IMG/VR virus record: IMGVR_UViG_3300005611_000006
Length of the DNA stretch: 64,000 nt
Strand: one strand, 5' to 3'
Source: a virus
Lineage: Duplodnaviria > Caudoviricetes
Both the position numbers and the translations under genes were made by a program. The notes under the pieces were generated by a model. That model did not search any database, was not told the DNA's origin, and saw only the letters and a list, made by a program, of their open reading frames with translations. Of this stretch, positions 172 to 44,385 are shown piece by piece; within the stretch, counting starts at the first letter, position 1, and the number at the start of each line of letters is the position of its first letter.

Positions 172-870
172 ATGTCTTACATCGATCATTTAGAGTCTGG
201 GAGCGTTCAGATTGGAGATGCTCCATTACCACCAGTATCATCTATTGATATATGGCCATCTTTAGATCCAACAAAACCTTTTTCTGCTCAAAACTGGGGA
301 ATTTCAAATTTTGTTGGTGCTCACCATCAGATTGGAGTTCATCACGGAGTTGGATCACATCTTTTAAATGGACTTACATCTTTAATTGGATTCAAAACTG
401 GAGTTGGTGGTCAAGTTAATGCAGAACCAAAACAGATTAGTGCTGCACCTACTATAAGTTTTTCTTCTCCAAATGGTAGTTTAAACGGATTTTGGACATA
501 TAATGGTTCTAACATATGTGCCCCTTGTCCATCAGACAAAAGTGCGAAAGTTAATATTAAACCACTTGAAAGTTCATTAGAAAAAGTTTTAAGATTACAA
601 GGTGTTTCTTTTGGTTGGAACTCTGAAGTAGTACCACAGAGAGCAAAATCTCAGGAAATCTCTATTGGTTTAATTGCACAAGAAGTTGAAAAGGTAATTC
701 CAGAAGTTGTAGTTGAAGAATTAATAGAAGATAATAAATTAAAGACAATAGAATATGGAAACCTTATTGGTCTTTTAGTAGAGGCAATAAAGGAACAGCA
801 AGATCAGATCTCAACACTAAAGGAGACAGTTGAGGAACTGTCCACTAAACTTGCAAAGCACCTCTCTTGA
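172..870 (+). CDS. Small tail-fibre/spike protein with C-terminal intramolecular chaperone (peptidase S74-like)
   Basis: SDKSAKVNIKPL..LEKVLRLQGVSFGW..IGLIAQEVEKVIPEVV..YGNLIGLLVEAIKE followed by a coiled coil. Confidence 0.8.
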   Translation: MSYIDHLESGSVQIGDAPLPPVSSIDIWPSLDPTKPFSAQNWGISNFVGAHHQIGVHHGVGSHLLNGLTSLIGFKTGVGGQVNAEPKQISAAPTISFSSPNGSLNGFWTYNGSNICAPCPSDKSAKVNIKPLESSLEKVLRLQGVSFGWNSEVVPQRAKSQEISIGLIAQEVEKVIPEVVVEELIEDNKLKTIEYGNLIGLLVEAIKEQQDQISTLKETVEELSTKLAKHLS

Positions 871-879
871 TGCTATGAT
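822..879 (+). promoter_or_regulatory. Early-type promoter with 24-bp palindrome (copy 1)
   Basis: GGAGACAGTTGAGGAACTGTCCAC 822-845; TTGCAA 851-856; TGn-TATGAT 874-879. Confidence 0.75.
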
Positions 880-908
880 GAGTAGGTGAAGAACCACTGA
901 AATAAATT

Positions 909-1079
909 ATGCAAATTGATCGTGACCAACTGAAAGATCTTCAAGAAATTCAAGAAGATGTTGCTCAACATTTTACTGATTCTTATATTGTCAGTGGAGA
1001 AACCTATTGGACTTGTCTGCAATGCCTTGCAGAAACAAAACTTGCAGAACTCCGTGGAGAACTCACATATGATGCTTGA
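909..1079 (+). CDS. Small cyanophage hypothetical protein, 56 aa (MQIDRDQLKDLQEIQEDVAQHF...)
   Basis: ATG-TGA ORF directly downstream of promoter copy 1; below the ORF-track size cutoff. Confidence 0.7.
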   Translation: MQIDRDQLKDLQEIQEDVAQHFTDSYIVSGETYWTCLQCLAETKLAELRGELTYDA

Positions 1080-1110
1080 CTTAAGATTAATCTTGTGATA
1101 TGATATCCTT

Positions 1111-1155
1111 ATCCGTGTGAAGGAAGTTACTTGGAGAATTAAAATTCTCCTTTTT
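1111..1155 (+). ncRNA. Candidate ~45-nt small RNA or terminated leader upstream of tRNA-Leu
   Basis: TTGACT(1076)-17 bp-TGnTATGAT(1099) promoter, then ATCCGTGTGAAGGAAGTTACTT, a GGAGAATT/AATTCTCC hairpin and a T-run. Confidence 0.45.
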
Positions 1156-1157
1156 AT

Positions 1158-1242
1158 GCGAGTATGGCGGAATCGGTAGACGCACCAGACTTAAAATCTG
1201 TTGAGAATTAATCTCGTGGGAGTTCAAGTCTCCCTACTCGCA
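1158..1242 (+). tRNA. trnL: tRNA-Leu(TAA)
   Basis: GCGAGTA/TACTCGC acceptor stem, anticodon loop CTTAAAA, long variable arm, GTTCAAG T-loop; CCA not encoded. Confidence 0.95.
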
Positions 1243-1244
1243 CT

Positions 1245-2003
1245 TTATAACCACTCATCATTTGCAGGATCATTAAGAAATGATAGAATAGTATCACTTT
1301 CTTGAATTGATGAATTTAATTCTGCTTTAGATTGTTCATATGAATAATTTTGAAGTTCATAATTAGATCTACTTTTCTTTAAGAAGTTAATAGTTGTAAT
1401 TAAATCATTTCTTTCATTTTGTATTGGTAAAATTTGATTTTGTAATTCTGTTATAGAATTTGCATAGCTTACACAAATAGGTCCAGTACAAGTAGCACTA
1501 TTACAAGTACCAACTGGTCCAAAGTAAGATCCTATAGAAACTTGTGAAATATAGTTTTCAGTACCTATACCAAGATTTCCTGATACAATTTCTCCTCCAG
1601 TTGGGGAAAACGGGTTATTTCCACTATAAGAATATCCTCTATAGTTTAATTGATCTCTGTTTACAGTAATTGTGGTAAATCCTGGTGGACTTCCTTCAAA
1701 AATTCCAGTTGTTCCACAACCAATTGAATTTGCGTTTTGCCCTAAAATTAAAATTCTATTTTGCAAATCTACAATTTCAGAATTTAATTCTAAAACTTTA
1801 CTATCTATTTTTTCTATTGATGAAGTATAATTTTCTATAATTTCATTTGGTCCCCATACTTTAATTTTTTCAGTTTCTCCAATTCCTGTTTGAATTGTAT
1901 ATCCTTGCTGTACAAAATTAATTTGATCTAATTGCTTTTTGTCTAAGGAATTTTTTTGAGTATAAAAATCAACTAAGTCTTGAGTTTGAGTGCTGATTGC
2001 CAT
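1245..2003 (-). CDS. Hypothetical coiled-coil virion-associated protein
   Basis: 252-aa ORF with two heptad segments; late-type AATAAATA upstream on the - strand (~2022-2029). Confidence 0.7.
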   Translation of the reverse strand: MAISTQTQDLVDFYTQKNSLDKKQLDQINFVQQGYTIQTGIGETEKIKVWGPNEIIENYTSSIEKIDSKVLELNSEIVDLQNRILILGQNANSIGCGTTGIFEGSPPGFTTITVNRDQLNYRGYSYSGNNPFSPTGGEIVSGNLGIGTENYISQVSIGSYFGPVGTCNSATCTGPICVSYANSITELQNQILPIQNERNDLITTINFLKKSRSNYELQNYSYEQSKAELNSSIQESDTILSFLNDPANDEWL

Positions 2004-2071
2004 AATTAAAATACTAATAAATTTATTTATTGATAAATAAGACAGAAGAAATATTGTAGGATAATCTAAGA

Positions 2072-23400: not shown

Positions 23401-26400
23401 TTCAATATGACGGAAATAATGTTTTCCATGACAGTTATCATCCAAACGCAGATAAGCTAACAACTGCTAGGACTATTAGTTTGTCTGGAGATGCAACAGG
23501 ATCTATTTCATTTGATGGCAGTGCAAATAAAACTATTTCTGTTGCTGTAGTCAATGATTCACATACTCATGATGGAAGATATTTCACAGAAACAGAATCA
23601 GATGCTAGATATCTTCATGACTATTTTGAAGCTGCTATTAATAGTCAAAGTGCAGAATCTGGAACTTGGACTAAAAGTTCTAGCTCCAGTAACTGGGGTC
23701 AACCAAAATTTAGCAATACGCATAACCAAAGAAGATATGCTGATGCAGGCGCGTACGTTCAATACAACGTACCATCAGGATATAAGTCCGCCTGGATAAG
23801 TCACCTTACATGGAACACTGGAGGATATGCTGATTGTTATGGAGTTCAAGCTGATGGCGACTTGATTTTCCTAAGAAGAATTAACACAAGACAACTGGTT
23901 GAAAACACTAATCACGGTGATCCAGATTTTCACGATGGATCTACTATTACGCATATTGGTAGTGGATTGGACCATTTTACTGCGATTAGAATTCAAAATC
24001 GAGTCGGAAGGATACACTTAACCGGTCTTGCATGGTCAAAAAATGATAACGCTGGTTATGAAGGAACTGGTATGGTTCACCCAGCGCAAATATCTCATCA
24101 AGGTGCTGGGTCTGGTCTTGATGCTGATACTCTTGATGGAGCACAACCTAGTGTAAATGCATCAAACAGCACTATTGTACAGAGACATTCATCTGGATAC
24201 ATCTACGCAAACTACTTTAACACTACCCCAAACGATGTTTCTAGTGGAGTAACAAGAATTTGCTGTGAAACAGGGAATGATGGATTTATCCGTCACGCAA
24301 CTGCTGATGCAGTTAGAGCATTTATTGATGATGGTAGGTATTTAAGATCTAATGCTAATGATACTTTTAGTGGAATTTTAACCGCAAGTGGAGCAGGAAG
24401 AATTACCTTTACAAATAATGTCGCTAATTATGATACAGCAGCTGAAATCCCAACATCAGATAATCATATTACTCCAGGCAAAGATAATGGAACAAATAAT
24501 ACTATTCCAGCAAATTTAAATCTTTGGTCTTGGTATGGAATTGGTTTTGGTCCTACAATCACCTCGCAAACAGTACCTAATGGTCAACTATCTCATTTAT
24601 TTAATGTAAGAAATGGTGATGCTACATTCCGAGGACTTCTAAGTATCTTGGGTGGAAAGATTGGAGTTAAAGCAACTCCTAGCGGTACTCCTGCTGCTAG
24701 AAATGCATTTATTGCATTAGGAGATGCCGATACAGGTATTGCACAAAATGGCGACGGTCAGCTTGAGTTGTGGGCAAATAATCAAGAATGCATAAACGTC
24801 ACAAGTGGAGGCATTACATCATATAAGAGCTGGTTTTTTGACAACAACAACCAAACTGGACAAAACAATGATTATGAAGCAGTAAGAGTTGATGCTGATT
24901 ATAGTGGAACAGCTGCGTTTACTACTAATAGAACCTTAACTGGCTTGCGAGTTACTCTAGATAGCTCAAAGTCAAACACAACAACTACTAATGGCAACAG
25001 AAAATATTTAAAAGGATTCAGGGTAGATTCAACTGCTACTCAGTTTTGCTATGACAATACTGGTATTTATTCATTAGCAAAATCAACAGGAAACGGGAGT
25101 GGAGTCGGTACTCAATCTATTTTCGGTGTATATGGTTATGCCCAGGCTTATGCGGCTGGTGGTGCCGTTAATGCCTATGGTGGCCATTTCTTAGCTTACA
25201 GAGGCGGCGGTACATCCGGCGGCACACTTTATGCAGTTTATGGTAGAGCACTGCAGACAGATAATGGATCTGGTAAATCTGGTAATGCAGTTGGCGGATA
25301 TTTTGAAGTCGAATGTGATGAAGAAACTATTGCAGATGCAAAGGCAGTTCAGGCACATATTGATCATGATGGAGGAACTATAACAACTGGACATTTATTC
25401 TACGGATCATATGCTGGCACTATAGGAACAAAATATGGATTGTACTTAACAGGTGAAGGGCAAAACTATCTATCTGGAAATTTAGGAGTTTTTTCAGAAA
25501 CAAATCGTACAGGTATGCGATTAGATGTCAATGGTTATGCAATTGCTAATCGATGGTATTGCAATAGTACAACCAGATTCATATCATCTGTATCTGGTGA
25601 TTATGGAACAGTTCAGTGTGGAGGATCTGGAGCAGGAAATTGGGAAGGATACAGCATTGATGGTCGTGCTGTTTTTATGCACGACGGTGGTAGTGCAATG
25701 GGATTGTATGACGATGTAAATAACCACTGGGCGATCCACCATACTTTCAATGGAGCCACAAAAATATATTACGACGGTTCGGAAAAATTTAGGTCAGCTT
25801 CAACTGGAGTTTATTTCAATTCTCAAACAAGAACTCGATTCGATATGTTGGCGGGAATTGATGATGGTGGAGTATATGGTGCCAACAACCAAAAATTTGA
25901 GGCTAGACATGGTACTGCTAATGGATCAACAACAGAAGGTGGACATACATTTATTAGAGGCAATAGAACAGCAGATTCGACAGCATGTTTAGAAATTCAA
26001 GTTGCCGGTGACAACAAAATCAGATTACGAGCAGATGGTAACGGAAGATTTGATGGCGGTGCAGATACTGGTAATGCTGACTATGCGGAGTACTTTGAAT
26101 GGGAAGACGGTAATCCAGATAACGAAGATAGACGAGGAATCCCTGTTGTCTTAGTTGAAGATAAAATCAGGATGGCATTGCCCGATGATGATGTCAATGA
26201 CATTATTGGTGTAATATCTGCTGCACCTGGAATTGTTGGTGATTCGGCAGAGCTTGGTTGGCAAGGACGTAATTTAAAAGATGAATATGGTGCCAAAGTA
26301 GTAAATCGTAAGCAATATTTAATCTGGAACGATGAAGAAACCGACCCTCAACCTGGCAACAATACAGATGCCGGGAATGCAGATCAAAAGCGTGAAATAA

Positions 26401-26779: not shown

Positions 26780-26873
26780 GTCTACACATCTTTGTATCTT
26801 TGAGATGTGAGACCCGTCTGTGGTGGGACGGTTTTCAAGGTGGAACACAGGGGGGTCTTCGGACCCCTTTTTT
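26780..26873 (+). ncRNA. Candidate three-hairpin small RNA ending in an intrinsic terminator
   Basis: TTGACA(26745)-17 bp-TATATT(26768) promoter; stems CACATCT/AGATGTG, CCGTC/GACGG and GGGGTC-TTCG-GACCCC followed by a T-run. Confidence 0.5.
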
Positions 26874-26883
26874 CTTGTATACT
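26824..26883 (+). promoter_or_regulatory. Palindrome promoter copy 2 (degenerate; a terminator hairpin fills the spacer)
   Basis: TGGGACGGTTTTCAAGGTGGAACA 26824-26847; TATACT 26878-26883. Confidence 0.55.
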
Positions 26884-26908: not shown

Positions 26909-29053
26909 ATGATCAACAAAGAAGTTAAAGGAATGCTTGCCAAATGTCTGGCAACTGAGAATCTTGTAGTTGAGCATCGTAATGTAATGACTGCGATGTT
27001 TGATGTTCAACGACGTGTTCTTACACTTCCAAATTGGCAGAAAGCTAGTAATACTGTATATGATCTCCTGGTTGCACACGAAGTAGGACACGCACTTTAT
27101 ACTGATAATATTGACTGGAAAGTAGAGTATCCAGATGTTCCTAAAGATTTCGTGAATGTCGTTGAAGATGCACGTATCGAACGTATGATGAAGAAAAAGT
27201 ATGGTGGTCTTTCTCGTACTTTTTATAATGGTTATCAGGAACTAAATGATGATGATTTTTTCTCAGTAAAGAATGAAAAGTTTGAGAGAATGAGTCTGAT
27301 TGATCGTATCAATCTTTATTTCAAGATTGGTGCATTTCATCAAATTCCTTTTAATGATGTTGAGAATGAATTTTTGACTCAAATCAGTCTTTCTGAGACT
27401 TTTGATGATGTTCTAAAAATCTCTCAGAATATCTATAATTATGTAAAGACAAAAGGTGATGATGATAAAATGAATTTCCCACAAATGGGAGATCACTCTC
27501 AATCTATGTCTTCAAGTTCTAGTAGTGAGGGCAATCAAGAGGGAGAAGAAGTAGAAGAAGATAATACAGGAGAAGAGGGAGATTCTGAAGAATCTGGAGA
27601 TTCTAAAGATTCTGAAGAAAATGGTGAGGGTGAAGATATTGATAATGATACAGATTCTTCTACTGGGGGAATGCAACCTGAGGATAAGGAAATAAATGAG
27701 ATGGAGTCTAAAACCTCTAGTTCTTTTGAAGAAAAATCAAAAGAACTTAATAATAGAATGGATTCGGATTCAGTTTCTTATGTTGAACTTCCTGAGTTTG
27801 ATCTAAGCAAAACTATTATTCCAAATAGTCACATTCATAAACTAAACGAGGAATTTTATTCTGATGATTATTATAAAGAATATGTCAATAGTAGTAATCA
27901 AAATTACATTGAGTTTAAGAAAAAATCTGAGAGAGAAGTATCTTATCTCGTAAAAGAGTTTGAGAGTAAGAAATCTGCAGATCAGTATGCTCGGGCATCA
28001 ATTGCAAGAACTGGCATTCTTGATACAACCAAACTTCATACTTATAAGTATAATGAAGACTTGTTTCGTAAAATTTCTGTTCTTCCTAATGGAAAGAATC
28101 ATGGACTAATTTTTATTCTTGATTGGTCTGGATCAATGTCTGATTATTTGCTTGATACTTATAAGCAACTTTGCAGTTTGATTTGGTTCTGTCGTAAGGT
28201 TAGTATTCCATTCGAGGTATATTCTTTCACTAATGATCCTAATGCATATATTGAATATGATCCAAATCACAATCCTACATATGAACCAAAAGATGGATTT
28301 ATTATGCCAGAAAAGTCATTTCGTTTGATGAATATTTTCACCAGTAAAGTAAACAATCGTGAATTGGAAAATCAAATGAAAATTATGTGGAGAATCTGTG
28401 AAGCATTCCAGAGTAGATATGGTTATGTCCCAAATCATATGTCTCTTTCTGGAACTCCTCTTGGAGAAACAATGATTGCAATGAATCAAGTTATTCCACA
28501 TTTCATTTCACAATACAAAGTTCAGAAAACTAACGTTGTTTTTCTAACTGATGGTGAGGGATATACAAATCCTTGTGGAATTTTTAGGAAAAGTTACACT
28601 GGCGAACAATACGTTGGAGCTAAGTATTCATGGCAAACTGTGATTCGTAATCGTAAAAATGGAAGAATGTATCCTGCCTATACTGAAAGAAATTTTGCTG
28701 CTTATTCAAAGGTATTGATGACATACTTGAAAGATTCATTTACAAATGTTAACTTTGTTAACTTTAGGATTGCTAATGGAAAAGAACTTTACAGTTGCTG
28801 GTCCAATTTTAGTGATAGAACAGATTATGAAAAGGTAAAAGTTTCCTTCCGAAAGAATAAGTTTGTATCTCTTGAAAAAACTGCATTTGACAAATTCTTT
28901 GTCCTTTCTTCAAATAATGTAAATGTCGATTCTGAGTTTGAAGTTGCAGAAGATGCCACAAAAACTCAAATCAAAACTGCATTTGTAAAATCTCTAGGAA
29001 AGAAGAAAGCAAACAAGAAAGTTCTCAGTGAGTTCATTTCTATGGTCTGCTGA
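26909..29053 (+). CDS. HEXXH metallopeptidase-like plus VWA domain protein (CobT-like partner of a MoxR AAA+)
   Basis: AHEVGH motif, acidic linker, MIDAS motif LDWSGSM..SGTP..LTDGE. The start is probably ATG 26909, not the GTG/upstream start in the ORF track. Confidence 0.85.
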   Translation: MINKEVKGMLAKCLATENLVVEHRNVMTAMFDVQRRVLTLPNWQKASNTVYDLLVAHEVGHALYTDNIDWKVEYPDVPKDFVNVVEDARIERMMKKKYGGLSRTFYNGYQELNDDDFFSVKNEKFERMSLIDRINLYFKIGAFHQIPFNDVENEFLTQISLSETFDDVLKISQNIYNYVKTKGDDDKMNFPQMGDHSQSMSSSSSSEGNQEGEEVEEDNTGEEGDSEESGDSKDSEENGEGEDIDNDTDSSTGGMQPEDKEINEMESKTSSSFEEKSKELNNRMDSDSVSYVELPEFDLSKTIIPNSHIHKLNEEFYSDDYYKEYVNSSNQNYIEFKKKSEREVSYLVKEFESKKSADQYARASIARTGILDTTKLHTYKYNEDLFRKISVLPNGKNHGLIFILDWSGSMSDYLLDTYKQLCSLIWFCRKVSIPFEVYSFTNDPNAYIEYDPNHNPTYEPKDGFIMPEKSFRLMNIFTSKVNNRELENQMKIMWRICEAFQSRYGYVPNHMSLSGTPLGETMIAMNQVIPHFISQYKVQKTNVVFLTDGEGYTNPCGIFRKSYTGEQYVGAKYSWQTVIRNRKNGRMYPAYTERNFAAYSKVLMTYLKDSFTNVNFVNFRIANGKELYSCWSNFSDRTDYEKVKVSFRKNKFVSLEKTAFDKFFVLSSNNVNVDSEFEVAEDATKTQIKTAFVKSLGKKKANKKVLSEFISMVC

Positions 29054-29109
29054 GACGGTTCAGAGAGTGTCCATAGGGCACTCTCCCGACCCCTTATGCC
29101 TGCTATACT
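29051..29109 (+). promoter_or_regulatory. Palindrome promoter copy 3
   Basis: TGAGACGGTTCAGAGAGTGTCCAT begins on the upstream stop codon; 29 bp gap; TGn-TATACT; no -35. Confidence 0.7.
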
Positions 29110-29151
29110 ACTTAAGTAGTTCAGCATCAGTCCTTTACACTTTACTTGATT

Positions 29152-33031: not shown

Positions 33032-33222
33032 AAACTTTATTTTTGTTTTCTTTTTTATTTTTTTGGGATACTTTAGATTTGACTAATAAAACTCCTTTAG
33101 AAAAGTTTTTGAATGAGTTTAACAGACAAAATGAAACTGGAGTATATGAAAAGGTAAAATCTTCTTGTTATGTTGAAGGAGAATTTTACAAAGTTTGTCC
33201 TGAATTTGAGGACACTTTCTAA
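33028..33222 (+). CDS. Hypothetical protein with hydrophobic N-terminus
   Basis: 64 aa, C-terminal SCYVEGEFYKVC. Confidence 0.55.
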   Translation: MKTLFLFSFLFFWDTLDLTNKTPLEKFLNEFNRQNETGVYEKVKSSCYVEGEFYKVCPEFEDTF

Positions 33223-33266
33223 ACCGTCCACTCTGCCCCTGACTCTGCCCCACTCTGCCCTATAAT
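33208..33266 (+). promoter_or_regulatory. Palindrome promoter copy 4
   Basis: GAGGACACTTTCTAAACCGTCCAC; 29-bp spacer containing three CTCTGCCC units; TATAAT. Confidence 0.75.
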
Positions 33267-33515: not shown

Positions 33516-33541
33516 GTCAATTTGAAATATAGTGATCATAT

Positions 33542-33626
33542 GGAGAGGTGACCGAGTGGATTAAGGTATCAGTCTTGAAAACTGCCGATGTGAAAGCATC
33601 CGTGGGTTCGAATCCCACCCTCTCCG
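33542..33626 (+). tRNA. trnS: tRNA-Ser(TGA)
   Basis: GGAGAGG/CCTCTCC acceptor, loop CTTGAAA, long variable arm; own TTGACA-17-TATAGT promoter at 33505-33533. Confidence 0.95.
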
Positions 33627-33663
33627 TTGACAATTATACTATATGTGGTATAATTGTCTTATC

Positions 33664-33735
33664 GGGTGAATAACTCAGTGGTAGAGTTCCTCCTTTACAC
33701 GGAGGCAGTCGGGGGTTCAAATCCCTCTTCACCCA
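33664..33735 (+). tRNA. trnV: tRNA-Val(TAC)
   Basis: Anticodon arm CCTCC-TTTACAC-GGAGG; TTGACA..TATAAT promoter at 33627-33654. Confidence 0.95.
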
Positions 33736-33758
33736 CTTGGAGATTGATCATCTCCATA

Positions 33759-33946
33759 GGGTATGACAGAATAGTTGGTGTGGTCAAGCACCCGACAATG
33801 TATAGTAAGGAAGGCTGTGGTGGCCGCCATATTACCTGGAGACAGGAGATATGAGAACTCATACCAAGAGTCCTGAAAGTTCAGAGGAAAACTTACATTA
33901 GTGAGACCCCTCTGTTGAAGGTATAATGTAATCCTTCTACCCACCC
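33759..33946 (+). ncRNA. Structured ncRNA inside the tRNA cluster, probably the manA RNA motif
   Basis: GC-richer ~190 nt closed by GGGTA/TACCC with an inner GAAGG/CCTTC stem. The GGGTATGACAGAAT start and tRNA-adjacent position match my recollection of cyanophage manA RNAs; not verified. Confidence 0.55.
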
Positions 33947-34013
33947 ACAACCAAATACCTTGGGACGGATTGCCCCAAAATTGCAGGTTGGTTCACCTGC
34001 TTTATATAAACAA

Positions 34014-34090
34014 CGGAACGTAGCTCAGTTTGGTAGAGCACTCGCTTTGGGAGCGAGATGTCGCAGGTTCGAATCCTGTCGTTCCGACCA
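34014..34090 (+). tRNA. trnP: tRNA-Pro(TGG), CCA encoded
   Basis: Anticodon arm CTCGC-TTTGGGA-GCGAG. Confidence 0.95.
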
Positions 34091-34104
34091 CTATTATCAT
34101 TTTT

Positions 34105-34284
34105 ATGAAAATTAATCTTTGGTATTCTAAGCATCTTCATCAATGGCGATGGACACTTTCTGATGATCGTGATAAAACTATTCAGGAATCGGGTCAACAA
34201 AATGATCTTCGCAATGCTATGAATGATGTAGCAAAAACTGTTGAATACATTTTAAGTAATTATAATTCTAATGATCCTCTGTAG
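34105..34284 (+). CDS. Small cyanophage protein
   Basis: MKINLWYSKHLHQWRWTL..QESGQ..LRNAMNDVAKTVEY; its stop overlaps the 5' end of tRNA-Asn. Confidence 0.7.
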   Translation: MKINLWYSKHLHQWRWTLSDDRDKTIQESGQQNDLRNAMNDVAKTVEYILSNYNSNDPL

Positions 34285-34346
34285 CACAGCGGTAGTGCAA
34301 ACGACTGTTAATCGTTGGGTCGCAGGTTCGAATCCTGCCGGGGGAG
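34275..34346 (+). tRNA. trnN: tRNA-Asn(GTT)
   Basis: Anticodon arm AACGA-CTGTTAA-TCGTT. Confidence 0.93.
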
Positions 34347-34349
34347 TTA

Positions 34350-34430
34350 GCTTCAGTGGCGGAATGGTAGACGCAGCAGACTTAGAATCTGCCGCCAGTT
34401 GGCGTGGAAGTTCAAATCTTCTCTGGAGCA
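34350..34430 (+). tRNA. trnL: tRNA-Leu(TAG)
   Basis: Anticodon arm GCAGA-CTTAGAA-TCTGC; long variable arm. Confidence 0.93.
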
Positions 34431-34437
34431 CTACTAA

Positions 34438-34496
34438 AAGGACACTTAAAAAACTGGCACAGTCATCATTGATCCCGGCAAAATATGCTCTATACT
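34438..34496 (+). promoter_or_regulatory. Palindrome promoter copy 5
   Basis: AAGGACACTTAAAAAACTGGCACA; 29 bp gap; TATACT. Confidence 0.75.
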
Positions 34497-34892: not shown

Positions 34893-35399
34893 ATGGATTC
34901 TAATAATCTCATCAAAAGTTTAACAGAAGCATATCTTGATGTTTATACATCTGATGAAGAAATTGGTGAAGCAACTTCTAATGAAACGGTTGAAGAAAAC
35001 AGTGGATATAATATGGATAAAATTAAGAAGGATCCTCTTGCTTCAATGACTCCTGCAACATTCTTGAAAAATAAAGAGGCAGGACAACAATTTGCATCAC
35101 CTAGAAGAAAAGGTCCTGGTGGTGGTAGAATTCCTTCAAGTCTTGCTCCTTCAAGAACTGCTGCAAATGTTGCAGATATTACTAAAGGAAGTGAGAGAAA
35201 CATTTCAAGATCACGTAGACTTCCTACTGATCCAAAGAGAACCAAAATGGTTAAAAAAGATGGTAAGTGGATGAAGGAAGCATTCGATATTGTACTTGAA
35301 CATCTTCTTGATGAAGGTTATGCAGATAATCAAGAAGCAGCAGTAAAAATTATGGCAAATATGAGTGAAGAATGGGTTAATAGCATTCTTGTTGACTGA
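34893..35399 (+). CDS. Late, putative internal virion protein
   Basis: TATAAATA at 34861; SLTEAYLDVY N-terminal motif and FDIVLEHLLDEGYAD..IMANMSEEW C-terminal motif. Confidence 0.65.
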   Translation: MDSNNLIKSLTEAYLDVYTSDEEIGEATSNETVEENSGYNMDKIKKDPLASMTPATFLKNKEAGQQFASPRRKGPGGGRIPSSLAPSRTAANVADITKGSERNISRSRRLPTDPKRTKMVKKDGKWMKEAFDIVLEHLLDEGYADNQEAAVKIMANMSEEWVNSILVD

Positions 35400-35456
35400 G
35401 GACACTCTATAAAGTGCCACACAGACCCCTCCGGGGGTCTTTTTTTATGCTATAGT
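35398..35456 (+). promoter_or_regulatory. Palindrome promoter copy 6 with an embedded terminator
   Basis: GAGGACACTCTATAAAGTGCCACA; the 29-bp spacer contains AGACCCC-TCCG-GGGGTCT and a T-run; TGn-TATAGT. Confidence 0.75.
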
Positions 35457-35470
35457 TTACTCGTAAACAA

Positions 35471-35704
35471 ATGAGACAGATGACTTCTTTCACACCAGAA
35501 ACAATCTCAGTTGAATTTACTGAATGTGAACTTCAAGATCTTCGTATTGCAATGATGGATTATACGTCAAAGTGGATGAATTATCATTCAGATTGTATTT
35601 TAGGTGTAGCACCAAAAAATATGAGTGAAGAGGGAGCACGTCTTTGTTATGAAGATGCAAGAAAACTCCAAGAACGTATTATTGTACTTTCTAAGAATTT
35701 TTGA
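35471..35704 (+). CDS. Early hypothetical protein
   Basis: 77-aa ORF directly after promoter copy 6. Confidence 0.65.
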   Translation: MRQMTSFTPETISVEFTECELQDLRIAMMDYTSKWMNYHSDCILGVAPKNMSEEGARLCYEDARKLQERIIVLSKNF

Positions 35705-36393: not shown

Positions 36394-36452
36394 TGTGCCA
36401 CTTGTAGAACTGGCACAGTGTGCTTGACTTGAGGCGGATAATCCCTTATATT
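36394..36452 (+). promoter_or_regulatory. Palindrome promoter copy 7
   Basis: TGTGCCACTTGTAGAACTGGCACA; TTGACT-17-TATATT; 29 bp gap. Confidence 0.85.
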
Positions 36453-36475
36453 AGGAGGGTAGTCAAGTCAAGCAG

Positions 36476-36613
36476 ATGACTTCAATTCGATTCACTTACG
36501 ACATTCAAACTCAAGAAAAAGTTTATGTTGTGGTTAAGAAGAATAAATATGTTTTAACCAATTCAATTACGAATGCAATTCGTATATCCCAAAATGAAAA
36601 ACAAGAAAATTAA
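36476..36613 (+). CDS. 45-aa early protein
   Basis: MTSIRFTYDIQTQEKVYVVV...; first ORF after promoter copy 7. Confidence 0.5.
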   Translation: MTSIRFTYDIQTQEKVYVVVKKNKYVLTNSITNAIRISQNEKQEN

Positions 36614-37024: not shown

Positions 37025-37276
37025 ATGAATGACATTAATCTTTCTGGTGTGTTTCTAACTGCTGAAGAGCACGGTTGTGTTTATACAGTTGACTCTGAAG
37101 GTGAATTGTTTTATACACCATTATATCAAGATGGTAGTGCAAATCTTGAAGAGTTTGATTTTGTAGATTTTGAAGAAAGTGATGCTGGTGATGAACAACT
37201 TGAAGAAATTCAAGAAGTTCTTTGTAAAATGATGCAAGTTGCAGGTCTTTATTTTAGACCTGCTGTGCCAGTCTAA
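37025..37276 (+). CDS. Acidic early protein
   Basis: MNDINLSGVFLTAEEHGCVYTVDSEGELFYTP... Confidence 0.7.
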   Translation: MNDINLSGVFLTAEEHGCVYTVDSEGELFYTPLYQDGSANLEEFDFVDFEESDAGDEQLEEIQEVLCKMMQVAGLYFRPAVPV

Positions 37277-37322
37277 AAACTGGCACAAAACGCTTGCCAA
37301 GGCACCCAGATGGTGCTATATT
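37264..37322 (+). promoter_or_regulatory. Palindrome promoter copy 8
   Basis: TGTGCCAGTCTAAAAACTGGCACA; TTGCCA-17-TATATT; 29 bp gap. Confidence 0.85.
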
Positions 37323-37496: not shown

Positions 37497-37530
37497 TTAA
37501 ATAATAATAGAACATTTTCCTCTTGGAACA

Positions 37531-37656
37531 ATGAGCACTCCTAATTGGATTCATAATTCTGGAAAGAAAAAGAATCCCCGAGGAGTGTCTAAGGGGAAAC
37601 TTAAATCTCGCAAACAATCTCTTAATCATTTCAAAAGAAAGTACAAATCAAAATGA
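37531..37656 (+). CDS. 41-aa basic peptide
   Basis: MSTPNWIHNSGKKKNPRGVSKGKLKSRKQSLNHFKRKYKSK*. Confidence 0.55.
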   Translation: MSTPNWIHNSGKKKNPRGVSKGKLKSRKQSLNHFKRKYKSK

Positions 37657-38093
37657 CTGAATTTGCAGATTTTGTTGCTACAAAACCCAACACAACTTTA
37701 CGAATGGAAAAGGTGATTGACTTGATTGAAAAGTTTTGCGATGTTCTTCGCACAAACTATCAAGAGTACGCAATCTATCAGCATCGTCGTCATATTCTAC
37801 AAAATGATAATGTAGAGTATCATCAAAAGCAAATTGATGAACTTTGTGAAGGTGAAGGTGTGGATAAGTTTGTGTATGAAAAAGGTCGTAAGTACGCAAA
37901 GATTATTCATATCACTAATGCTGGTAATCGAAGTGCTCACGCATTCGTAGATATGAAAACAGGTGATGTATATAAATCTGCAAGTTGGAAATCTCCTGCA
38001 AAGGGAATTCGATATAATCTTCTAGATGAAAAATCTAGAACTGAAATGTATAAGCGTGCAGACTGGGCAGGTTCTTATCTTTATAACAAATGA
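37653..38093 (+). CDS. Widespread phage early protein of unknown function
   Basis: GRKYAKI..SAHAFVD..TGDVYKSASWKSPAKGIRYNL motif. Confidence 0.8.
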   Translation: MTEFADFVATKPNTTLRMEKVIDLIEKFCDVLRTNYQEYAIYQHRRHILQNDNVEYHQKQIDELCEGEGVDKFVYEKGRKYAKIIHITNAGNRSAHAFVDMKTGDVYKSASWKSPAKGIRYNLLDEKSRTEMYKRADWAGSYLYNK

Positions 38094-38278
38094 AAGAAGA
38101 ATTCTATGATGGTCTAGAAATCAACTATCAAGGTCAAAATGGCACTGTACGTTTTGTTTGTGATTCTTATATTACAATGTGCATTCATTTAGATGAATTA
38201 AGATTCAGAGATGTTTGTATTGTAATACCTTCAGAAAGATACTCTGAAATTAAACTCAAAAAACAATCTGACAAATGA
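38090..38278 (+). CDS. Small SH3-like hypothetical protein
   Basis: 62 aa, GTVRFVCDSYITMCI; ATGA overlaps. Confidence 0.65.
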   Translation: MKEEFYDGLEINYQGQNGTVRFVCDSYITMCIHLDELRFRDVCIVIPSERYSEIKLKKQSDK

Positions 38279-38775
38279 CTCCTGAACAAAAGTTTCAACA
38301 ACTCTTTGAAGAAATGTATTCGCTTTGCGATGAACAGGGTTGGGGTGATCCTTTTTCTTACGCAAGATCTAGAGAAATTCATATGGCAGGAGTTCTGAAG
38401 CATCAAATTGCAAAAGAATATAGTGGTGCTGATGCTTATGACGAAGAAGGTGGAGCAGAATATAAATCTACTATTGCAAAAACTATAAATGCAACCTATA
38501 ATGGAATTAGTGTTCAAGACACTTGGGAAGATCAAGAAAGATATTTGATAGAAGATAAAATTGGTAAATATAAGAACCACTATTATGCACGCTATGAAGG
38601 TGGTAAAATTGTAGAAGTTTGGAAGTTAGATTGTAATGATGTACTTGCTATTATTCTTCCTAAAGCAAAGAAACAATATCCTAAGAAAAAGAATGGTAAT
38701 GCAAAAGATCCTCGTATCGGTGTTACTATCTCTAAGACAGAAATTTATTCAGTTGGAACCTGTATTTTTGGATGA
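38275..38775 (+). CDS. Putative PD-(D/E)XK restriction endonuclease, PvuII-like
   Basis: GADAYDEEGGAEYKS catalytic signature; similarity along the length to R.PvuII as recalled; adjacent methyltransferase. Confidence 0.6.
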   Translation: MTPEQKFQQLFEEMYSLCDEQGWGDPFSYARSREIHMAGVLKHQIAKEYSGADAYDEEGGAEYKSTIAKTINATYNGISVQDTWEDQERYLIEDKIGKYKNHYYARYEGGKIVEVWKLDCNDVLAIILPKAKKQYPKKKNGNAKDPRIGVTISKTEIYSVGTCIFG

Positions 38776-38778
38776 ACT

Positions 38779-39327
38779 ATGATAAACTCTAAAAAAATTA
38801 TGTATTCCTCAGGAAATAATGATGAATCATATACTCCTGATTATGGTGTAAAACCAATTCTAAAATATATCCCTAAAGATGCTGTTGTTTGGTGTCCATT
38901 CGATACTGAAGAAAGCGAATTTGTAAAACAAATTGGGGAGCAGAATGAAGTAATATATTCTCATATTCAAGATGGATCTGACTTTTTAACTTATGAACCA
39001 GAGTTTCATAAGTGGGATGTAATTGTATCAAATCCACCTTTTACAAATAAAAGAAAATACTTTGAACGAGCATTATCTTTTAACAAACCATTTGCATTAA
39101 TTATGACAAATACTTGGTTGAATGATTCTGCACCAAAGCAAATATTTAAGGATAGAGATCTACAACTTCTGATGTTTGATAAAAGGATGAAATTTAATAA
39201 TCCAGATGGTAGACCTAACGATAAGATTACATTTAGTAGTAGTTATTATTGTTGGAATTTTCTTCCGAAACAAATCATAATGGAAAATCTCGATGTGCCA
39301 ACTAAGAAAGCGGCACAAACCACTTGA
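38779..39327 (+). CDS. Small amino (N6-A or N4-C) DNA methyltransferase
   Basis: DESYTP..VVWCPFD (SAM-binding region)..DVIVSNPPF (catalytic motif IV). Confidence 0.85.
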   Translation: MINSKKIMYSSGNNDESYTPDYGVKPILKYIPKDAVVWCPFDTEESEFVKQIGEQNEVIYSHIQDGSDFLTYEPEFHKWDVIVSNPPFTNKRKYFERALSFNKPFALIMTNTWLNDSAPKQIFKDRDLQLLMFDKRMKFNNPDGRPNDKITFSSSYYCWNFLPKQIIMENLDVPTKKAAQTT

Positions 39328-39352
39328 CTTCTCAGTCAATCCTCTGTATAGT
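39294..39352 (+). promoter_or_regulatory. Palindrome promoter copy 9
   Basis: TGTGCCAACTAAGAAAGCGGCACA within the methyltransferase 3' end; TTGACT-17-TATAGT; 29 bp gap. Confidence 0.8.
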
Positions 39353-39374
39353 TACGAAGTAATCAAAAAACAAA

Positions 39375-39509: not shown

Positions 39510-39516
39510 TTCCATT

Positions 39517-39587
39517 GCCCTTATAGTTAAAAGGTATAACAGTTGCCTTGTAAGCATCAATTTCCAGTTCAATTCTGGATGAGGGCT
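39517..39587 (+). tRNA. trnT: tRNA-Thr(TGT)
   Basis: GCCCTTA/TGAGGGC acceptor, loop CTTGTAA; one mismatch in the anticodon stem. Confidence 0.85.
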
Positions 39588-39602
39588 TTTACTTAACAAA
39601 AC

Positions 39603-39687
39603 TGTGCCACCTGTAGAACTGGCACAATAAATGAGCACAGATCCCAAAGTGCTCTATATTGGTTAAGTGGTTGAGAGAGACCACACT
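39603..39687 (+). promoter_or_regulatory. Palindrome promoter copy 10 (subfamily B, 85-bp repeat with 43892-43976)
   Basis: TGTGCCACCTGTAGAACTGGCACA; TATATT; leader hairpin GTGGT-TGAGAGAG-ACCAC. Confidence 0.85.
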
Positions 39688-39705
39688 CAAACTTTATTCT
39701 TTTCT

Positions 39706-40914: not shown

Positions 40915-40929
40915 TTTTCCGTAATTCAA

Positions 40930-41232: not shown

Positions 41233-41240
41233 GAAGAATG

Positions 41241-41316
41241 TGTGCCACCTGTAGAACCGTCCCTAACACCCCCCACAACCCCCTCAGGGGTGCTATGATT
41301 ACGAAGTAATCAATCA
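41241..41316 (+). promoter_or_regulatory. Palindrome promoter copy 11 (subfamily C)
   Basis: TGTGCCACCTGTAGAACCGTCCCT; C-rich 29-bp spacer; TATGATTACGAAGTAATCAATCA. Confidence 0.85.
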
Positions 41317-41323
41317 GGGATGT

Positions 41324-41512
41324 ATGTTCATCATTTGTCCAGTTTCTTTTGATCTATGTGATGCAGAATGGTATGATGATATTGATGATGCATCTGAAAA
41401 TGCACTTGAATGGAGTGTTGATCTTCAAGGATCTAATGTAAAAGTTTACGAAGCAATTCTTCGTAATGATGAAACTTACTCTTTCAATTGTCTAAAGTCT
41501 ATTTGTGCTTGA
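41324..41512 (+). CDS. Acidic early protein
   Basis: 62-aa ORF after promoter copy 11. Confidence 0.65.
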   Translation: MFIICPVSFDLCDAEWYDDIDDASENALEWSVDLQGSNVKVYEAILRNDETYSFNCLKSICA

Positions 41513-41513
41513 A

Positions 41514-41717
41514 ATGAACATTTTTCCTCTTGATGATCAACTGGTAATGTTAATTGACCGACTGAATAATGCGGTCAATGTTTGTTATGAAGCACCAGAA
41601 ATTGAAGATCAAGGTTATGCTTATGCGACAGGTTATTCACGATCTGCGATGACTGATGTGGCAGATAGTTTAAGTAAAATTGTTAAACAAATCCGAGAGG
41701 ACAATGCAGAATCTTGA
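41514..41717 (+). CDS. Early hypothetical protein
   Basis: ..LIDRLNNAVNVC..GYAYATGYSRSAM.. Confidence 0.65.
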   Translation: MNIFPLDDQLVMLIDRLNNAVNVCYEAPEIEDQGYAYATGYSRSAMTDVADSLSKIVKQIREDNAES

Positions 41718-41877
41718 AATGTTGATGCAACGTGAACAATTAATGGAAGACATTCATTGTATCATTGAATCAAACTTTGGTGGGGTTGAATACAAAAAGT
41801 TGACGGATCATATCATCGATGATGTAATATGTCAACTTTGTGATGCTGTCTGTAAAAACTTTCCAATTAACAACTGA
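41704..41877 (+). CDS. Early hypothetical protein
   Basis: MQNLEMLMQREQLMEDI..LCDAVCKNFP. Confidence 0.65.
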   Translation: MQNLEMLMQREQLMEDIHCIIESNFGGVEYKKLTDHIIDDVICQLCDAVCKNFPINN

Positions 41878-42122
41878 TGAACTACACACTAAAAGATCTT
41901 CAAAATCGTGTCAACAATCTGATTGCACAACAGGGTGAAGATGCACCTGTCGCGTGGTGGATTTATACCAATGAGGATGTTTTTACTATTGATGACAATG
42001 GTAATGAACAATATAAACCACTTGATGTTTGTGAAAAAGTCTTATCAAATTTGTGGGACATTGATTACATTCATACTGTAATTGTTGATGCTATTGATGA
42101 AGAACTTCGAGAGACTAATTAA
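41877..42122 (+). CDS. Acidic early protein
   Basis: TLKDLQNRVNNLIAQQGEDAPVAWWIYTNEDV. Confidence 0.7.
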   Translation: MNYTLKDLQNRVNNLIAQQGEDAPVAWWIYTNEDVFTIDDNGNEQYKPLDVCEKVLSNLWDIDYIHTVIVDAIDEELRETN

Positions 42123-42127
42123 CATCT

Positions 42128-42203
42128 TGTGCCACCTGTAGAAGTGGCACTAACAACCCCCACAGTGCCCCCTGAGGCGCTATAATTACGAAGTAATCAA
42201 TCA
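42128..42203 (+). promoter_or_regulatory. Palindrome promoter copy 12 (subfamily C)
   Basis: TGTGCCACCTGTAGAAGTGGCACT; 29 bp gap; TATAATTACGAAGTAATCAATCA. Confidence 0.88.
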
Positions 42204-42210
42204 GACAGCA

Positions 42211-42888
42211 ATGGATCGCTCTCAAGTCATCGCCAAGATTCAATCAATTCTGAAACTTAAGAATGGAACTACATTCGATGGTGAGGCAGATGCTGCCGCT
42301 AAAATGATTGATAAACTTTGTAAACAGTATGGTGTCACTGTTAATGAAGCAACTGAAGTACAAGTTTCTGATGAAGAGTTTTCTTCATTCAAGAGAATCA
42401 ATCAAGCACACGCAACAATCCTGAATGCAATTGCATCTTTTTATGATGCAAAAGCATATCTTAAGAAGAGTGGAGATCTTAAATCTCTTCAGGTGATTGG
42501 TAGTGAGGGTCAGCAAATTCAGGTTAAACTTTACTTTGATTATCTGATTCAGGTAATGGAGAAAGAAGCAGAAGTTGCATATAAAGCAGAGAAAGTCATT
42601 GCTGATATTCAAGGAACTAAAGTATCACGTAGTTTCAAACTTAACTTTAGAAAGGCATTTGCAGATAAGATCTCCATTAGACTTGATGATATGAAAAAGC
42701 AAGAGGGTAGAGTTCACGAAGATAAAGAAGCAGTTTCCAAGAAATTATCTACTATGCGATTTGGAAATGTAAAGAGAGGAACATCTGCTAACGGTGCAGG
42801 TGCGGCATCTGGTAATTCTGTTGGTGCTGGTGTTTCTCTTCATAGGCAAACATCTGGAAGTGTTACAAAACAACTGTGTGGGGTATAA
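42211..42888 (+). CDS. DUF2786-like protein
   Basis: VIAKIQSILKL..TTFDGEADAAAKMIDKLCKQYGV N-terminal motif. Confidence 0.75.
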   Translation: MDRSQVIAKIQSILKLKNGTTFDGEADAAAKMIDKLCKQYGVTVNEATEVQVSDEEFSSFKRINQAHATILNAIASFYDAKAYLKKSGDLKSLQVIGSEGQQIQVKLYFDYLIQVMEKEAEVAYKAEKVIADIQGTKVSRSFKLNFRKAFADKISIRLDDMKKQEGRVHEDKEAVSKKLSTMRFGNVKRGTSANGAGAASGNSVGAGVSLHRQTSGSVTKQLCGV

Positions 42889-42933
42889 TTACCCTATTAT
42901 CCTATAAATAAATTTTTTCAATTTACAAGAATT

Positions 42934-43125
42934 ATGACTCCTCAAAAAATTCAAGAATACAAAGATTATGTTATTTCAGTTTTCAATGAAGATGTAAAAA
43001 ATCTTCTTGATGAATTTATTGAAAATGATCCAGAACTTAATCAACTCAATTACGATGATGTTGTTGATTATGTAAATGCTAATCTTAATAGTAAAGTAGA
43101 ATGGGTTGATCAAGTCTCACAATGA
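42934..43125 (+). CDS. Acidic 63-aa protein
   Basis: ORF preceded by TATAAATA (late-type promoter) at 42903. Confidence 0.6.
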   Translation: MTPQKIQEYKDYVISVFNEDVKNLLDEFIENDPELNQLNYDDVVDYVNANLNSKVEWVDQVSQ

Positions 43126-43134
43126 GACCGACCG

Positions 43135-43210
43135 TGTGCCAGTCCACAAACCGGCACACAACCCTCCCATAACGCCCCCTGAGGCGCTATGATTACAAGG
43201 TAATCAATCA
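43135..43210 (+). promoter_or_regulatory. Palindrome promoter copy 13 (subfamily C)
   Basis: TGTGCCAGTCCACAAACCGGCACA; 29 bp gap; TATGATTACAAGGTAATCAATCA. Confidence 0.85.
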
Positions 43211-43216
43211 ACCACT

Positions 43217-43399
43217 ATGGCAACTCGATACAGTGTCCTCTGTCCTTCACAACCTCAAGAATCTGAATCTGTATTAACATTAGATCAGGCGTGGGATGTA
43301 TGTTATGATCTTGCTGAAGAGTTTGGTTATGCTGAGGTGAGAGATCCTAATGGTGATTACATTGGAGATTGCGGTAATCCTGCATCATTCTTTAACTGA
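43217..43399 (+). CDS. Acidic early protein
   Basis: YSVLCPS..LDQAWDVCYDLAEEFGYAEVR. Confidence 0.7.
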   Translation: MATRYSVLCPSQPQESESVLTLDQAWDVCYDLAEEFGYAEVRDPNGDYIGDCGNPASFFN

Positions 43400-43420
43400 T
43401 TCAATCAACCCATTAACAAA

Positions 43421-43663
43421 ATGACTACTTCTACACTTTCAACTAAAACCTATCAAGGTTGGGCAAATTACGAGACTTGGAATGTCGCACTTTATATTGG
43501 TAATCATTATGGACTCTATAATCAAGCAAGGAGATCCAAAACCTATCAAGATCTTGTGAACTATTTGTATAAGTGTGGATCAACTGAAACTCCAGATGGT
43601 GTTGAATGGACTGATACTAAGATTGATGGTATTGCTATTAATGAGATGATGAAAGATCTCTGA
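43421..43663 (+). CDS. Early protein with YQGWANYETWNVALYI motif
   Basis: Motif I recognise from phage early proteins. Confidence 0.75.
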   Translation: MTTSTLSTKTYQGWANYETWNVALYIGNHYGLYNQARRSKTYQDLVNYLYKCGSTETPDGVEWTDTKIDGIAINEMMKDL

Positions 43664-43729
43664 TTGATGAATTGACCTGATGATGTCATTAAACTCATCA
43701 TATTGTACACACTAACTTCTTCTTTTATT

Positions 43730-43885
43730 ATGACTTCCATTAATCTTGATCTCACCCGTGAAGTTGCTATTGATATGCTTCGCAAGGGAAATACTGGTAA
43801 TGAGATTCTTCAGATCCTGAATGCTATTGTTCCTGATCAAGATGATGCACCTAATGAAGGTACACTGGAACCCATTGAGTTCTGA
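43730..43885 (+). CDS. 51-aa early protein
   Basis: MTSINLDLTREVAIDMLRKGNTGNEILQILN... Confidence 0.65.
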   Translation: MTSINLDLTREVAIDMLRKGNTGNEILQILNAIVPDQDDAPNEGTLEPIEF

Positions 43886-43891
43886 TACCCT

Positions 43892-43976
43892 TGTGCCACC
43901 TATACAAGTGTCACAATAAATGAGCACAGACCTCAAAATGGTCTATAGTGTATAGGTGGTTGAGAGAGACCACACT
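43892..43976 (+). promoter_or_regulatory. Palindrome promoter copy 14 (subfamily B)
   Basis: 73/85 identical to 39603-39687. Confidence 0.85.
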
Positions 43977-44000
43977 TTTGTTCTTTATTCCTTCTCATCA

Positions 44001-44177
44001 ATGACTACTTCACAACGAATGGAACGTCAATTCTTTATTCGATTCATCACACTTGTTAATGATGTGCAAGGATATACTCAACTGCCTTCTGAGATTAATT
44101 CTTCGCGGAAGTCAACTTGGATGAAACAAGTAAAGAATCCAAAAATGAAGAAAGATGCACTGTCTTCCGTGAAATAA
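44001..44177 (+). CDS. 58-aa basic early protein
   Basis: MTTSQRMERQFFIRFITLVNDVQG..LPS..RKSTW. Confidence 0.6.
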   Translation: MTTSQRMERQFFIRFITLVNDVQGYTQLPSEINSSRKSTWMKQVKNPKMKKDALSSVK

Positions 44178-44221
44178 TGGTATAAATGTTAACATATTAA
44201 AAATATGTTAAAAAACCATTA

Positions 44222-44302
44222 CTTATTCCTCTTAATGTCTCTATTATGTCTCTTAATGCCTGTTAATGTCTCTATTATTCCTCTTAATGCCTGTTAATGT
44301 CT
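44222..44302. repeat. Tandem 10/11-bp repeats (STTAATGYCT-type), about 8 units
   Basis: cttattcct cttaatgtct ctattatgtct cttaatgcct gttaatgtct ctattattcct cttaatgcct gttaatgtct. Confidence 0.85.
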
Positions 44303-44326
44303 TCACTTATTGTGATCTTAGCCAGC

Positions 44327-44385
44327 ATAATACCACAAAAACTTCGTGGTGTCAAGAGAACTGGGACACTTCACAAAGTGGCACA
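44327..44385 (-). promoter_or_regulatory. Palindrome promoter copy 15, inverted orientation
   Basis: Minus strand TGTGCCACTTTGTGAAGTGTCCCA, then TTGACA-17-TATTAT with extended TGn; same 29 bp gap. Confidence 0.8.

Follow-up and report, generated by a model that had tools for sequence, protein, structure and literature searches.

Palindrome-marked promoter cassettes of a T4-like cyanophage lineage and their likeness to host yfr2 promoters

Introduction

What reads a palindrome that a phage carries 15 times at almost the same distance from a -10 box? The question is raised by IMG/VR record IMGVR_UViG_3300005611_000006, a 64,000-nucleotide stretch of viral DNA (hereafter the window, meaning the whole of this stretch), in which 15 copies of a 24 bp palindrome stand in promoter cassettes between positions 822 and 44,385. 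What the present analysis adds is that, as judged from sequence comparison, the arms of the palindrome appear to be half-sites of the host yfr2 promoters that are activated by the PlmA homologue PMM1637, and that they stand in the same register; the promoter class itself has already been reported.

By its gene content, the window is part of a divergent, uncultured lineage of T4-like cyanomyoviruses. This assignment follows from PHROG matches to baseplate wedge proteins, tail fibres, CobS and the phrog_459 'peptidase', from the presence of eight tRNA genes, and from tblastn matches of the helicase, nearly all of which are to Synechococcus or Prochlorococcus phages. The helicase is less than 48% identical to that of any phage in the compared collection. 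A megablast of the window against this collection returned no match, and neither did an exact 45-mer from the window when searched for in IMG/VR.

Fifteen palindromes at a fixed distance from -10 boxes

The original prediction placed the palindrome at 15 positions, and at all 15 it is present (coordinates of the individual cassettes are given below). The sites share a two-fold symmetric 24 bp consensus, TGTG(C/A)CA(S)TT-N4-AA(S)TG(G/T)CACA, with G4, C6, A7, T18, G19 and C21 invariant or nearly so. With up to three mismatches allowed, the strict consensus matches eight times in the window, against 0.01 matches expected from shuffled sequences. A weight matrix built from the 15 sites scores above 8 bits at just these sites and at one weak further match at 25203, in a scan that is circular in that the matrix was trained on the same 15 sites. 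The predicted gap to the -10 box (TATNNT) likewise holds: it is 29 bp in 11 sites, 28 bp in three (822, 39603 and 43892) and 30 bp in one (26824). With a transcription start assumed 7 nt past the -10 box, the palindrome spans approximately -65 to -42 and is centred at -53.5. From the end of the -10 box to the next start codon there are 15-52 nt.

Most copies were said to lack a good -35 element, and this is the case: a match of at least five of six positions is reached in only 4 of the 15 cassettes, eight have three or fewer, and the spacers of two (26824 and 35398) hold canonical intrinsic terminator hairpins. An extended -10 (TGn) is found in six. The claim that no palindrome precedes a structural gene is also borne out. 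Structural genes are preceded instead by the T4-type late box NATAAATA, of which there are 18 copies on the plus strand vs two on the minus strand, while the genes behind the cassettes are small open reading frames (ORFs) of unknown function, a tRNA cluster, a helicase gene, cobS and a phrog_459 gene.

Weak hints at transcription from two of the cassettes come from metatranscriptome contigs of relatives that are 90-99% alike. Near the cassette at 35398, contigs of four runs start at 35478-35527, and near that at 36394 contigs start at 36472-36485, two of them being joined to adapter sequence; relative to the predicted starts of the two cassettes, the contigs begin 15-25 nt further on. Metatranscriptome contigs cannot prove a start site, and where some contigs end near the cassettes at 42128 and 43135, the assembly probably broke at repeated cassette sequence.

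The palindrome has the features of a protein site

The spacers between palindrome and -10 box are unrelated to each other (median identity 32%, which is near random), yet their length is held at 28-30 bp, so the spacing appears to be selected and not merely inherited from duplicated cassettes. We then looked at ten mirrored position pairs in 98 sites from five phages. At all ten, complementary pairs are as numerous as expected for independent columns. Arms of the C/A and the G/T type are freely mixed within sites, and no T-run follows the palindrome. Taken together, the missing co-variation, the mixed arms and the missing T-run argue for a dimer-type protein site and against a stem-loop in RNA or DNA. 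The promoter-proximal arm is slightly better conserved than the distal one (10.0 vs 8.8 bits). In L226, an IMG/VR relative of 93% identity, 7 of 192 palindrome positions have changed, all of them degenerate, while the flanks diverge by about 7%.

The dimer-type site near -53 that had been proposed is thus upheld at the sequence level, with its centre at -53.5, its spacing kept and its mirrored positions free of co-variation: an upstream two-fold symmetric protein site that would serve -35-poor promoters of small non-structural genes is supported.

This layout has parallels in known systems. The middle promoters of T4, which depend on MotA and AsiA, similarly combine a good -10 box and a dispensable -35 with a specific upstream activator box. 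However, the MotA box is a single asymmetric element at -30 that is read by a phage protein, whereas the window has a dyad at -65 to -42. T4 itself has no copy of the palindrome, a MotA-like protein is not supported for the window, and T4-like cyanophages, to our knowledge, lack MotA, AsiA and Alt. Sites of the cyanobacterial CRP family are alike in that a dimer site replaces the -35 at promoters with a -10 box only. At such class II promoters, NtcA (GTA-N8-TAC) and SyCRP (TGTGA-N6-TCACA) bind sites centred at -41.5. These differ from the palindrome of the window in half-site, spacing and position (-41.5 vs -53.5). A reading of TGGCAC as a sigma-54 element was rejected on established knowledge, as the distance to TTGC does not fit and cyanobacteria have no sigma-54.

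The cassette is common among T4-like cyanophages

We counted palindromes with at most two mismatches in reference phages and compared them with a reversed-pattern control, which gave 0-1 matches in motif-bearing phages. There are 10 sites in S-PM2, 16 in P-SSM2, 18 in the freshwater phage S-CRM01 and 14 in P-TIM40 (vs one in the control), those of P-TIM40 being clustered at 48-55 kb. In Syn9, sites with a gap of 28-29 bp to a -10 box are located at 43113, 47204, 48558, 51000, 52996, 127492 and 148742, and the layout of palindrome and -10 box stands in a small-gene region. The scan of related cyanophages that the original prediction called for thus finds the motif in all five of these. T4 has no site, the T7-like phages P-SSP7 and Syn5, the myovirus S-TIM5 and the siphovirus P-SS2 are at control level, and the pelagiphage HTVC008M has three weak matches against none in its reversed control. 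Among the phages compared, the motif is confined to cyanobacterial Kyanoviridae; the pelagiphage belongs to the same virus family and has a non-cyanobacterial host. A scan of IMG/VR found the palindrome together with a -10 box in at least 120 stretches, and the 223 unique perfect palindromes among the matches listed show a sharp peak of TANNNT at an offset of 29-30.

The 15 elements of the window are very likely promoter cassettes of an early-gene type that is common to T4-like cyanophages. Doron et al. reportedly described, in the abstract of a 2016 paper (ISME J 10:1437), a 'novel regulatory element' that controls early-gene transcription in Syn9 and P-TIM40 and is conserved in T4-like cyanophages. 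We take the cassette element to be, very probably, this early element; the suspicion in the original prediction that the motif might be known already would then be right. In agreement with such an identity, the layout of palindrome and -10 box is present in Syn9 and P-TIM40, in small-gene regions, is conserved among T4-like cyanophages and is abundant in viral metagenome contigs. The window differs from the phages of Doron et al. in representing a divergent, uncultured lineage. In the texts covered by a literature search, no description of the palindrome sequence was found.

The half-site recurs, in register, in host yfr2 promoters

A reading without a host regulon was dropped after the promoters of yfr2-type genes had been examined with the weight matrix. 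The Rfam family Cyano-1 (Yfr2-type small RNA) is present in 39 of 41 sampled host genomes. About half of these 39 promoters carry a half-site G(A/C)CAGT(T/C) 61-67 nt upstream of the conserved GTGAGG of the RNA. Scored with the matrix that was built from the window's 15 sites only, 28 of the 39 exceed the 99th percentile of 7366 background zones, and in 33 an unrestricted scan from -125 to -24 places the best match at -63 to -71 from GTGAGG. Most of the top-scoring host promoters have a TANNNT 28-31 nt after the 24-nt site. In 29 of the 39 the right arm, when scored in register, lies above the 90th percentile of the background, and both the G and the T arm variants are used in hosts as in the phage. 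Many host promoters resemble a weak phage site, GACAGTT-N5-AGCG(C/G)C, and some yfr2 promoters have half-sites that overlap the -35 region. The option of a host-encoded factor, one of those left by the original prediction, is supported by this shared half-site and register; of the motif scan across hosts that it called for, the half-site and register in yfr2-type promoters were the part that gave a positive result, while the strict palindrome is not enriched (counts are given in the Discussion).

Near-perfect palindromes of the phage type also occur on small contigs of cyanobacterial metagenome-assembled genomes (G153:C133, G013:C28, G102:C39/C41 and G172:C2/C32). These seem to stem from cyanophage DNA caught up in the binning and not to be host sites.

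The yfr2 promoters contain a palindrome of 21-22 nt, CGRE1, that begins 55-57 nt upstream of the start (PMC6191309; Lambrecht, Wahlig and Steglich 2018). The GntR-family PlmA homologue PMM1637 was pulled down with CGRE1, its binding was confirmed by electrophoretic mobility shift assay (EMSA) and with an R50A mutant, and in a green fluorescent protein reporter the yfr2 and yfr4 promoters gave stronger expression with wild-type PMM1637 (PMC6191309). Induction takes place under high light and nitrogen starvation, and one case is described with the element 'at -20'; phage promoters are not mentioned (PMC6191309).

CGRE1 and the phage site have in common a 9-10 bp unit, GTG(A/C)CAGTT, in both arm variants. 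Going by the predicted phage starts, one GTGMCAGTT unit, and only one, would lie at approximately -66 to -57 in both, and in both the site stands upstream of the -10 box in -35-poor promoters. On the same prediction, it is the distal unit of the phage site (about -65 to -56) that would match the promoter-proximal unit of CGRE1 in position, and the phage site would then extend to -42. Many host promoters have the left unit only, with a weak AGCG(C/G)C where the right arm would be.

In five host genomes there is exactly one GntR gene apiece, of 328-333 aa, and a GntR gene was found in none of Syn9, S-PM2, P-SSM2, S-CRM01 and P-TIM40. GntR operators generally take the form GT-Nx-AC, which the inner phage dyad GTT-N4-AAC, to our eyes, resembles. 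Upstream of the single host GntR gene, at 50-100 nt (host loci L274-L278), there is a conserved AATTGTCAC that resembles the phage proximal arm, often with a second element, AATTGGCAT, about 21 nt upstream of it. According to EMSA, PMM1637 does not bind its own promoter (PMC6191309).

Candidates for a phage-encoded reader

No obvious regulator gene had been noticed in the window, and Pfam scans of 20 early ORFs agree, returning no DNA-binding domain. The best phage-encoded candidate that we noted is DUF7717 (PF24835), encoded at 37653-38093 on the plus strand. It is conserved much more strongly than core genes: the family comprises 2248 protein clusters that are 62-76% identical to the window copy, whereas the helicase is only about 47% identical. 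In a comparison of 12 sequences, that is, 11 reference phage genomes and the window, DUF7717 is present in Syn9, S-PM2, P-SSM2, S-CRM01, P-TIM40 and the window, and is missing in the six phages that do not have the motif. Its structural model (predicted local distance difference test score, pLDDT, 87) consists of one long helix and a four-stranded sheet and has no known relative. A profile search against the PDB gave no match, and the protein atlas has it in unnamed viral clusters only.

A role for DUF7717 as a MotA-like factor was considered and rejected: Foldseek found nothing below E 0.27, the hhalign probability was 0.06, and the VIA-align Z of 4.2 to the MotA C-terminal domain is at noise level. 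Another small protein, Syn9 gp230 (L004:25642-25872; phrog_385, 'transcriptional regulator'), is conserved among cyanomyoviruses, is also found weakly in the pelagiphage, and matches nothing in Pfam or the PDB.

Cassettes as borders of gene modules

In the relative L226, the cassette at 42128 is joined directly to the gene that in the window lies behind the cassette at 43135, the intervening 1-kb module being missing, so that a hybrid results with the palindrome of the former and the gene of the latter. A second relative, L228, and three metatranscriptome runs skip 42892-43133 and end exactly at the palindrome edge. Overall, gene-sized indels in relatives and RNA contigs have borders at cassette edges at 37499/37653, 42891/43134 and 41457/41839. 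A secondary role of the cassettes seems to be that of recombination points where gene modules can enter or leave.

In this respect they are like the PeSL (promoter-early stem-loop) cassettes of other T4-like phages (Arbiol et al. 2010; Comeau et al. 2014, PMC4122927), compact early-promoter cassettes that are repeated at the borders of variable modules and are recombination points. The upstream element of a PeSL is a variable stem-loop or terminator, in contrast to the sequence-conserved, non-covarying palindrome of the window, where a terminator, if there is one, lies between palindrome and -10 box.

The individual cassettes

All cassettes but the last lie on the plus strand. The cassette at 822..879 (palindrome 822-845, gap 28 bp, -10 TATGAT at 874-879) precedes a 56-aa ORF and tRNA-Leu. 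That at 26824..26883 (palindrome 26824-26847, -10 TATACT), with its terminator hairpin in a 30-bp spacer, stands before the 714-aa phrog_459 'peptidase' gene, and that at 29051..29109 (gap 29 bp, -10 TATACT) before cobS. The cassette at 33208..33266, which has a C-rich spacer and the -10 box TATAAT, has a 74-aa ORF, five tRNA genes and a manA RNA behind it. It is followed by 34438..34496 (gap 29 bp, -10 TATACT) and 35398..35456 (terminator hairpin in the spacer, -10 TATAGT).

The palindromes at 36394..36452 (-35 TTGACT, -10 TATATT) and 37264..37322 (-35 TTGCCA, -10 TATATT) are perfect, and the second of these cassettes heads the operon with the DUF7717 gene. At 39294..39352 (-35 TTGACT, -10 TATAGT) the cassette precedes a 44-aa ORF and tRNA-Thr, and at 39603..39660 (gap 28 bp, -10 TATATT) the helicase gene. 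Spacers are C-rich at 41241..41299 (degenerate proximal arm, -10 TATGAT), 42128..42186 (-10 TATAAT) and 43135..43193 (-10 TATGAT); an indel border of relatives falls at 43134, exactly next to the last of these. The cassette at 43892..43949 has a gap of 28 bp and the -10 box TATAGT. On the minus strand, finally, the cassette at 44327..44385 (palindrome 44362-44385, -35 TTGACA at 44350-44355, then 17 bp and -10 TATTAT at 44327-44332) faces about 120 nt of non-coding, repetitive sequence.

In many cassettes the -10 box contains the beginning of a short inverted repeat, for example TGATTAC-gaa-GTAATCA; instances are at 41296-41312, 35455-35468 and 29107-29120. The mean best stem from the -10 box to +22 is 4.2 for the 15 cassettes vs 3.39 +/- 0.21 in shuffles, an excess that is partly due to related leaders.

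Other features of the window

The entire tRNA cluster (33541-34431) is downstream of the cassette at 33208, and its manA RNA (Rfam RF01745, 82.7 bits) is encoded at 33738-33947 on the plus strand, between tRNA-Val and tRNA-Pro. An early ORF pair at 38275-39327 (plus strand) encodes proteins that are 75% and 82% identical to those of P-SSM2, unlike the rest of the window, which is less than 50% identical to known phages; this suggests a recent module exchange. The second ORF of the pair has weak methyltransferase signatures.

Almost 1 kb, from 44190 to 45130, is free of ORFs. Tandem copies of a unit of about 29 nt occupy 44225-44305, downstream of the minus-strand cassette at 44362, and the stretch includes a hairpin, TTTTCCACA...TGTGGAAAA. 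A perfect TTGACA-17-TATAAT promoter at about 44454-44482 has no gene behind it. The ORF-free stretch could encode small RNAs or contain an origin.

Discussion

We propose that the arms of the phage palindrome copy the CGRE1 half-site and that a host regulator of the PlmA type activates the cassettes, to which we give an even chance or slightly better. The host's single PlmA-type GntR regulator, the homologue of PMM1637, would already be in the cell at infection; it would bind the incoming phage DNA at the cassette palindromes and, once bound, would assist the unmodified host RNA polymerase in initiating at promoters most of which have no -35. Both the binding and activation by PMM1637 at the phage arrangement and the early timing of these genes in the window are steps that we infer. 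Overall we regard this as the best explanation and lean towards it modestly. The early promoters may, furthermore, be optimised and re-arranged copies of yfr2 promoters, so that T4-like cyanophages would borrow the host PlmA to start their infection programme and would couple early expression to the light and nitrogen state; we see the chances of this extended version as balanced.

Several observations weigh against activation by PlmA. The geometry of the two sites is not the same: CGRE1 has abutting units, AACTGKCAC-N1-GTGMCAGTT, centred near -67, whereas the phage site has them in swapped order, GTGMCAGTT-N4-AACTGKCAC, centred at -53.5, and the two could not both be bound in the same manner by a rigid dimer. 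The phage-type palindrome is not enriched in hosts. TGTGCCA-N10-TGGCACA with at most one mismatch occurs at about 54 sites in 301 host-family genomes vs about 83 for the control (a hand count of the result table), and the strict palindrome with at most two mismatches occurs 28 times in five marine Synechococcus genomes vs 31 for the control. The proximal arm together with a -10 box is not enriched in three Synechococcus genomes either (10 vs 12). Lastly, P-SSP7, Syn5, S-TIM5 and P-SS2 share the hosts but not the motif, which makes a lineage-specific phage factor possible.

Such a factor would be a phage protein that reads the palindrome, either brought in by the virion or expressed first from those few cassettes that have a good -35 and then boosting the rest, and the likeness to yfr2 would either stem from convergence or reflect a phage protein that competes with PlmA. 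The restriction of the motif to cyanobacterial Kyanoviridae and its absence from four other cyanophage lineages of the same hosts would fit such a reader, as would a half-site order different from that of the experimentally bound CGRE1. The 4 of 15 cassettes with a near-consensus -35 could fire unaided, and DUF7717 is strongly conserved, co-occurs perfectly with the motif and is always encoded just downstream of a cassette. However, this co-occurrence amounts to essentially one phylogenetic contrast, the model of DUF7717 has neither a helix-turn-helix nor a significant structural match, and the early ORFs of the window have no DNA-binding domain. A phage reader would also leave unexplained why half-site and register are shared with host yfr2 promoters, and we consider it unlikely. 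A smaller chance still goes to the palindrome being an operator for shut-off or tuning, where a protein at -65 to -42 holds or blocks the polymerase at self-sufficient core promoters once early transcription has to end. The strong TATNNT in all 15 cassettes, the extended -10 in six and the good -35 in four are what such promoters would have, and some yfr2 promoters of hosts have half-sites overlapping the -35 region, a place typical of repressors. On the other hand, eight of the 15 lack a usable -35 and TGn or have a terminator in the spacer, which points to a need of upstream help; a site that keeps its distance to within 1 bp and lies upstream of the polymerase footprint is what one typically sees with recruitment; and PMM1637 acts positively on the yfr2 and yfr4 promoters (PMC6191309).

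That no protein reads the palindrome, and that it is instead a nucleic-acid structure, be it a PeSL-like stem-loop or terminator belonging to the transcript upstream or a cruciform or recombination signal, appears highly improbable to us. It would account for the location of cassettes at gene-module borders and for indels of relatives exactly at cassette edges, with one junction formed between two cassettes, a behaviour as described for PeSLs (PMC4122927). Yet there is no compensatory change at mirrored positions, arms of the C/A type are often paired with arms of the G/T type, the palindrome is not followed by a T-run, and the true terminators are separate from it, inside two spacers. Moreover, the arm sequence is conserved among phages with less than 50% protein identity.

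We know of no reader so far assigned to the reported early element. Apart from the identity of the reader, the cassettes mark exchange points of early gene modules between phages. If the proposed role of PlmA is true, it would explain the restriction of the element to phages of cyanobacteria, and the early infection of the ocean's most abundant phototrophs would be linked to host light and nitrogen signalling via PlmA (and PII-PipX).

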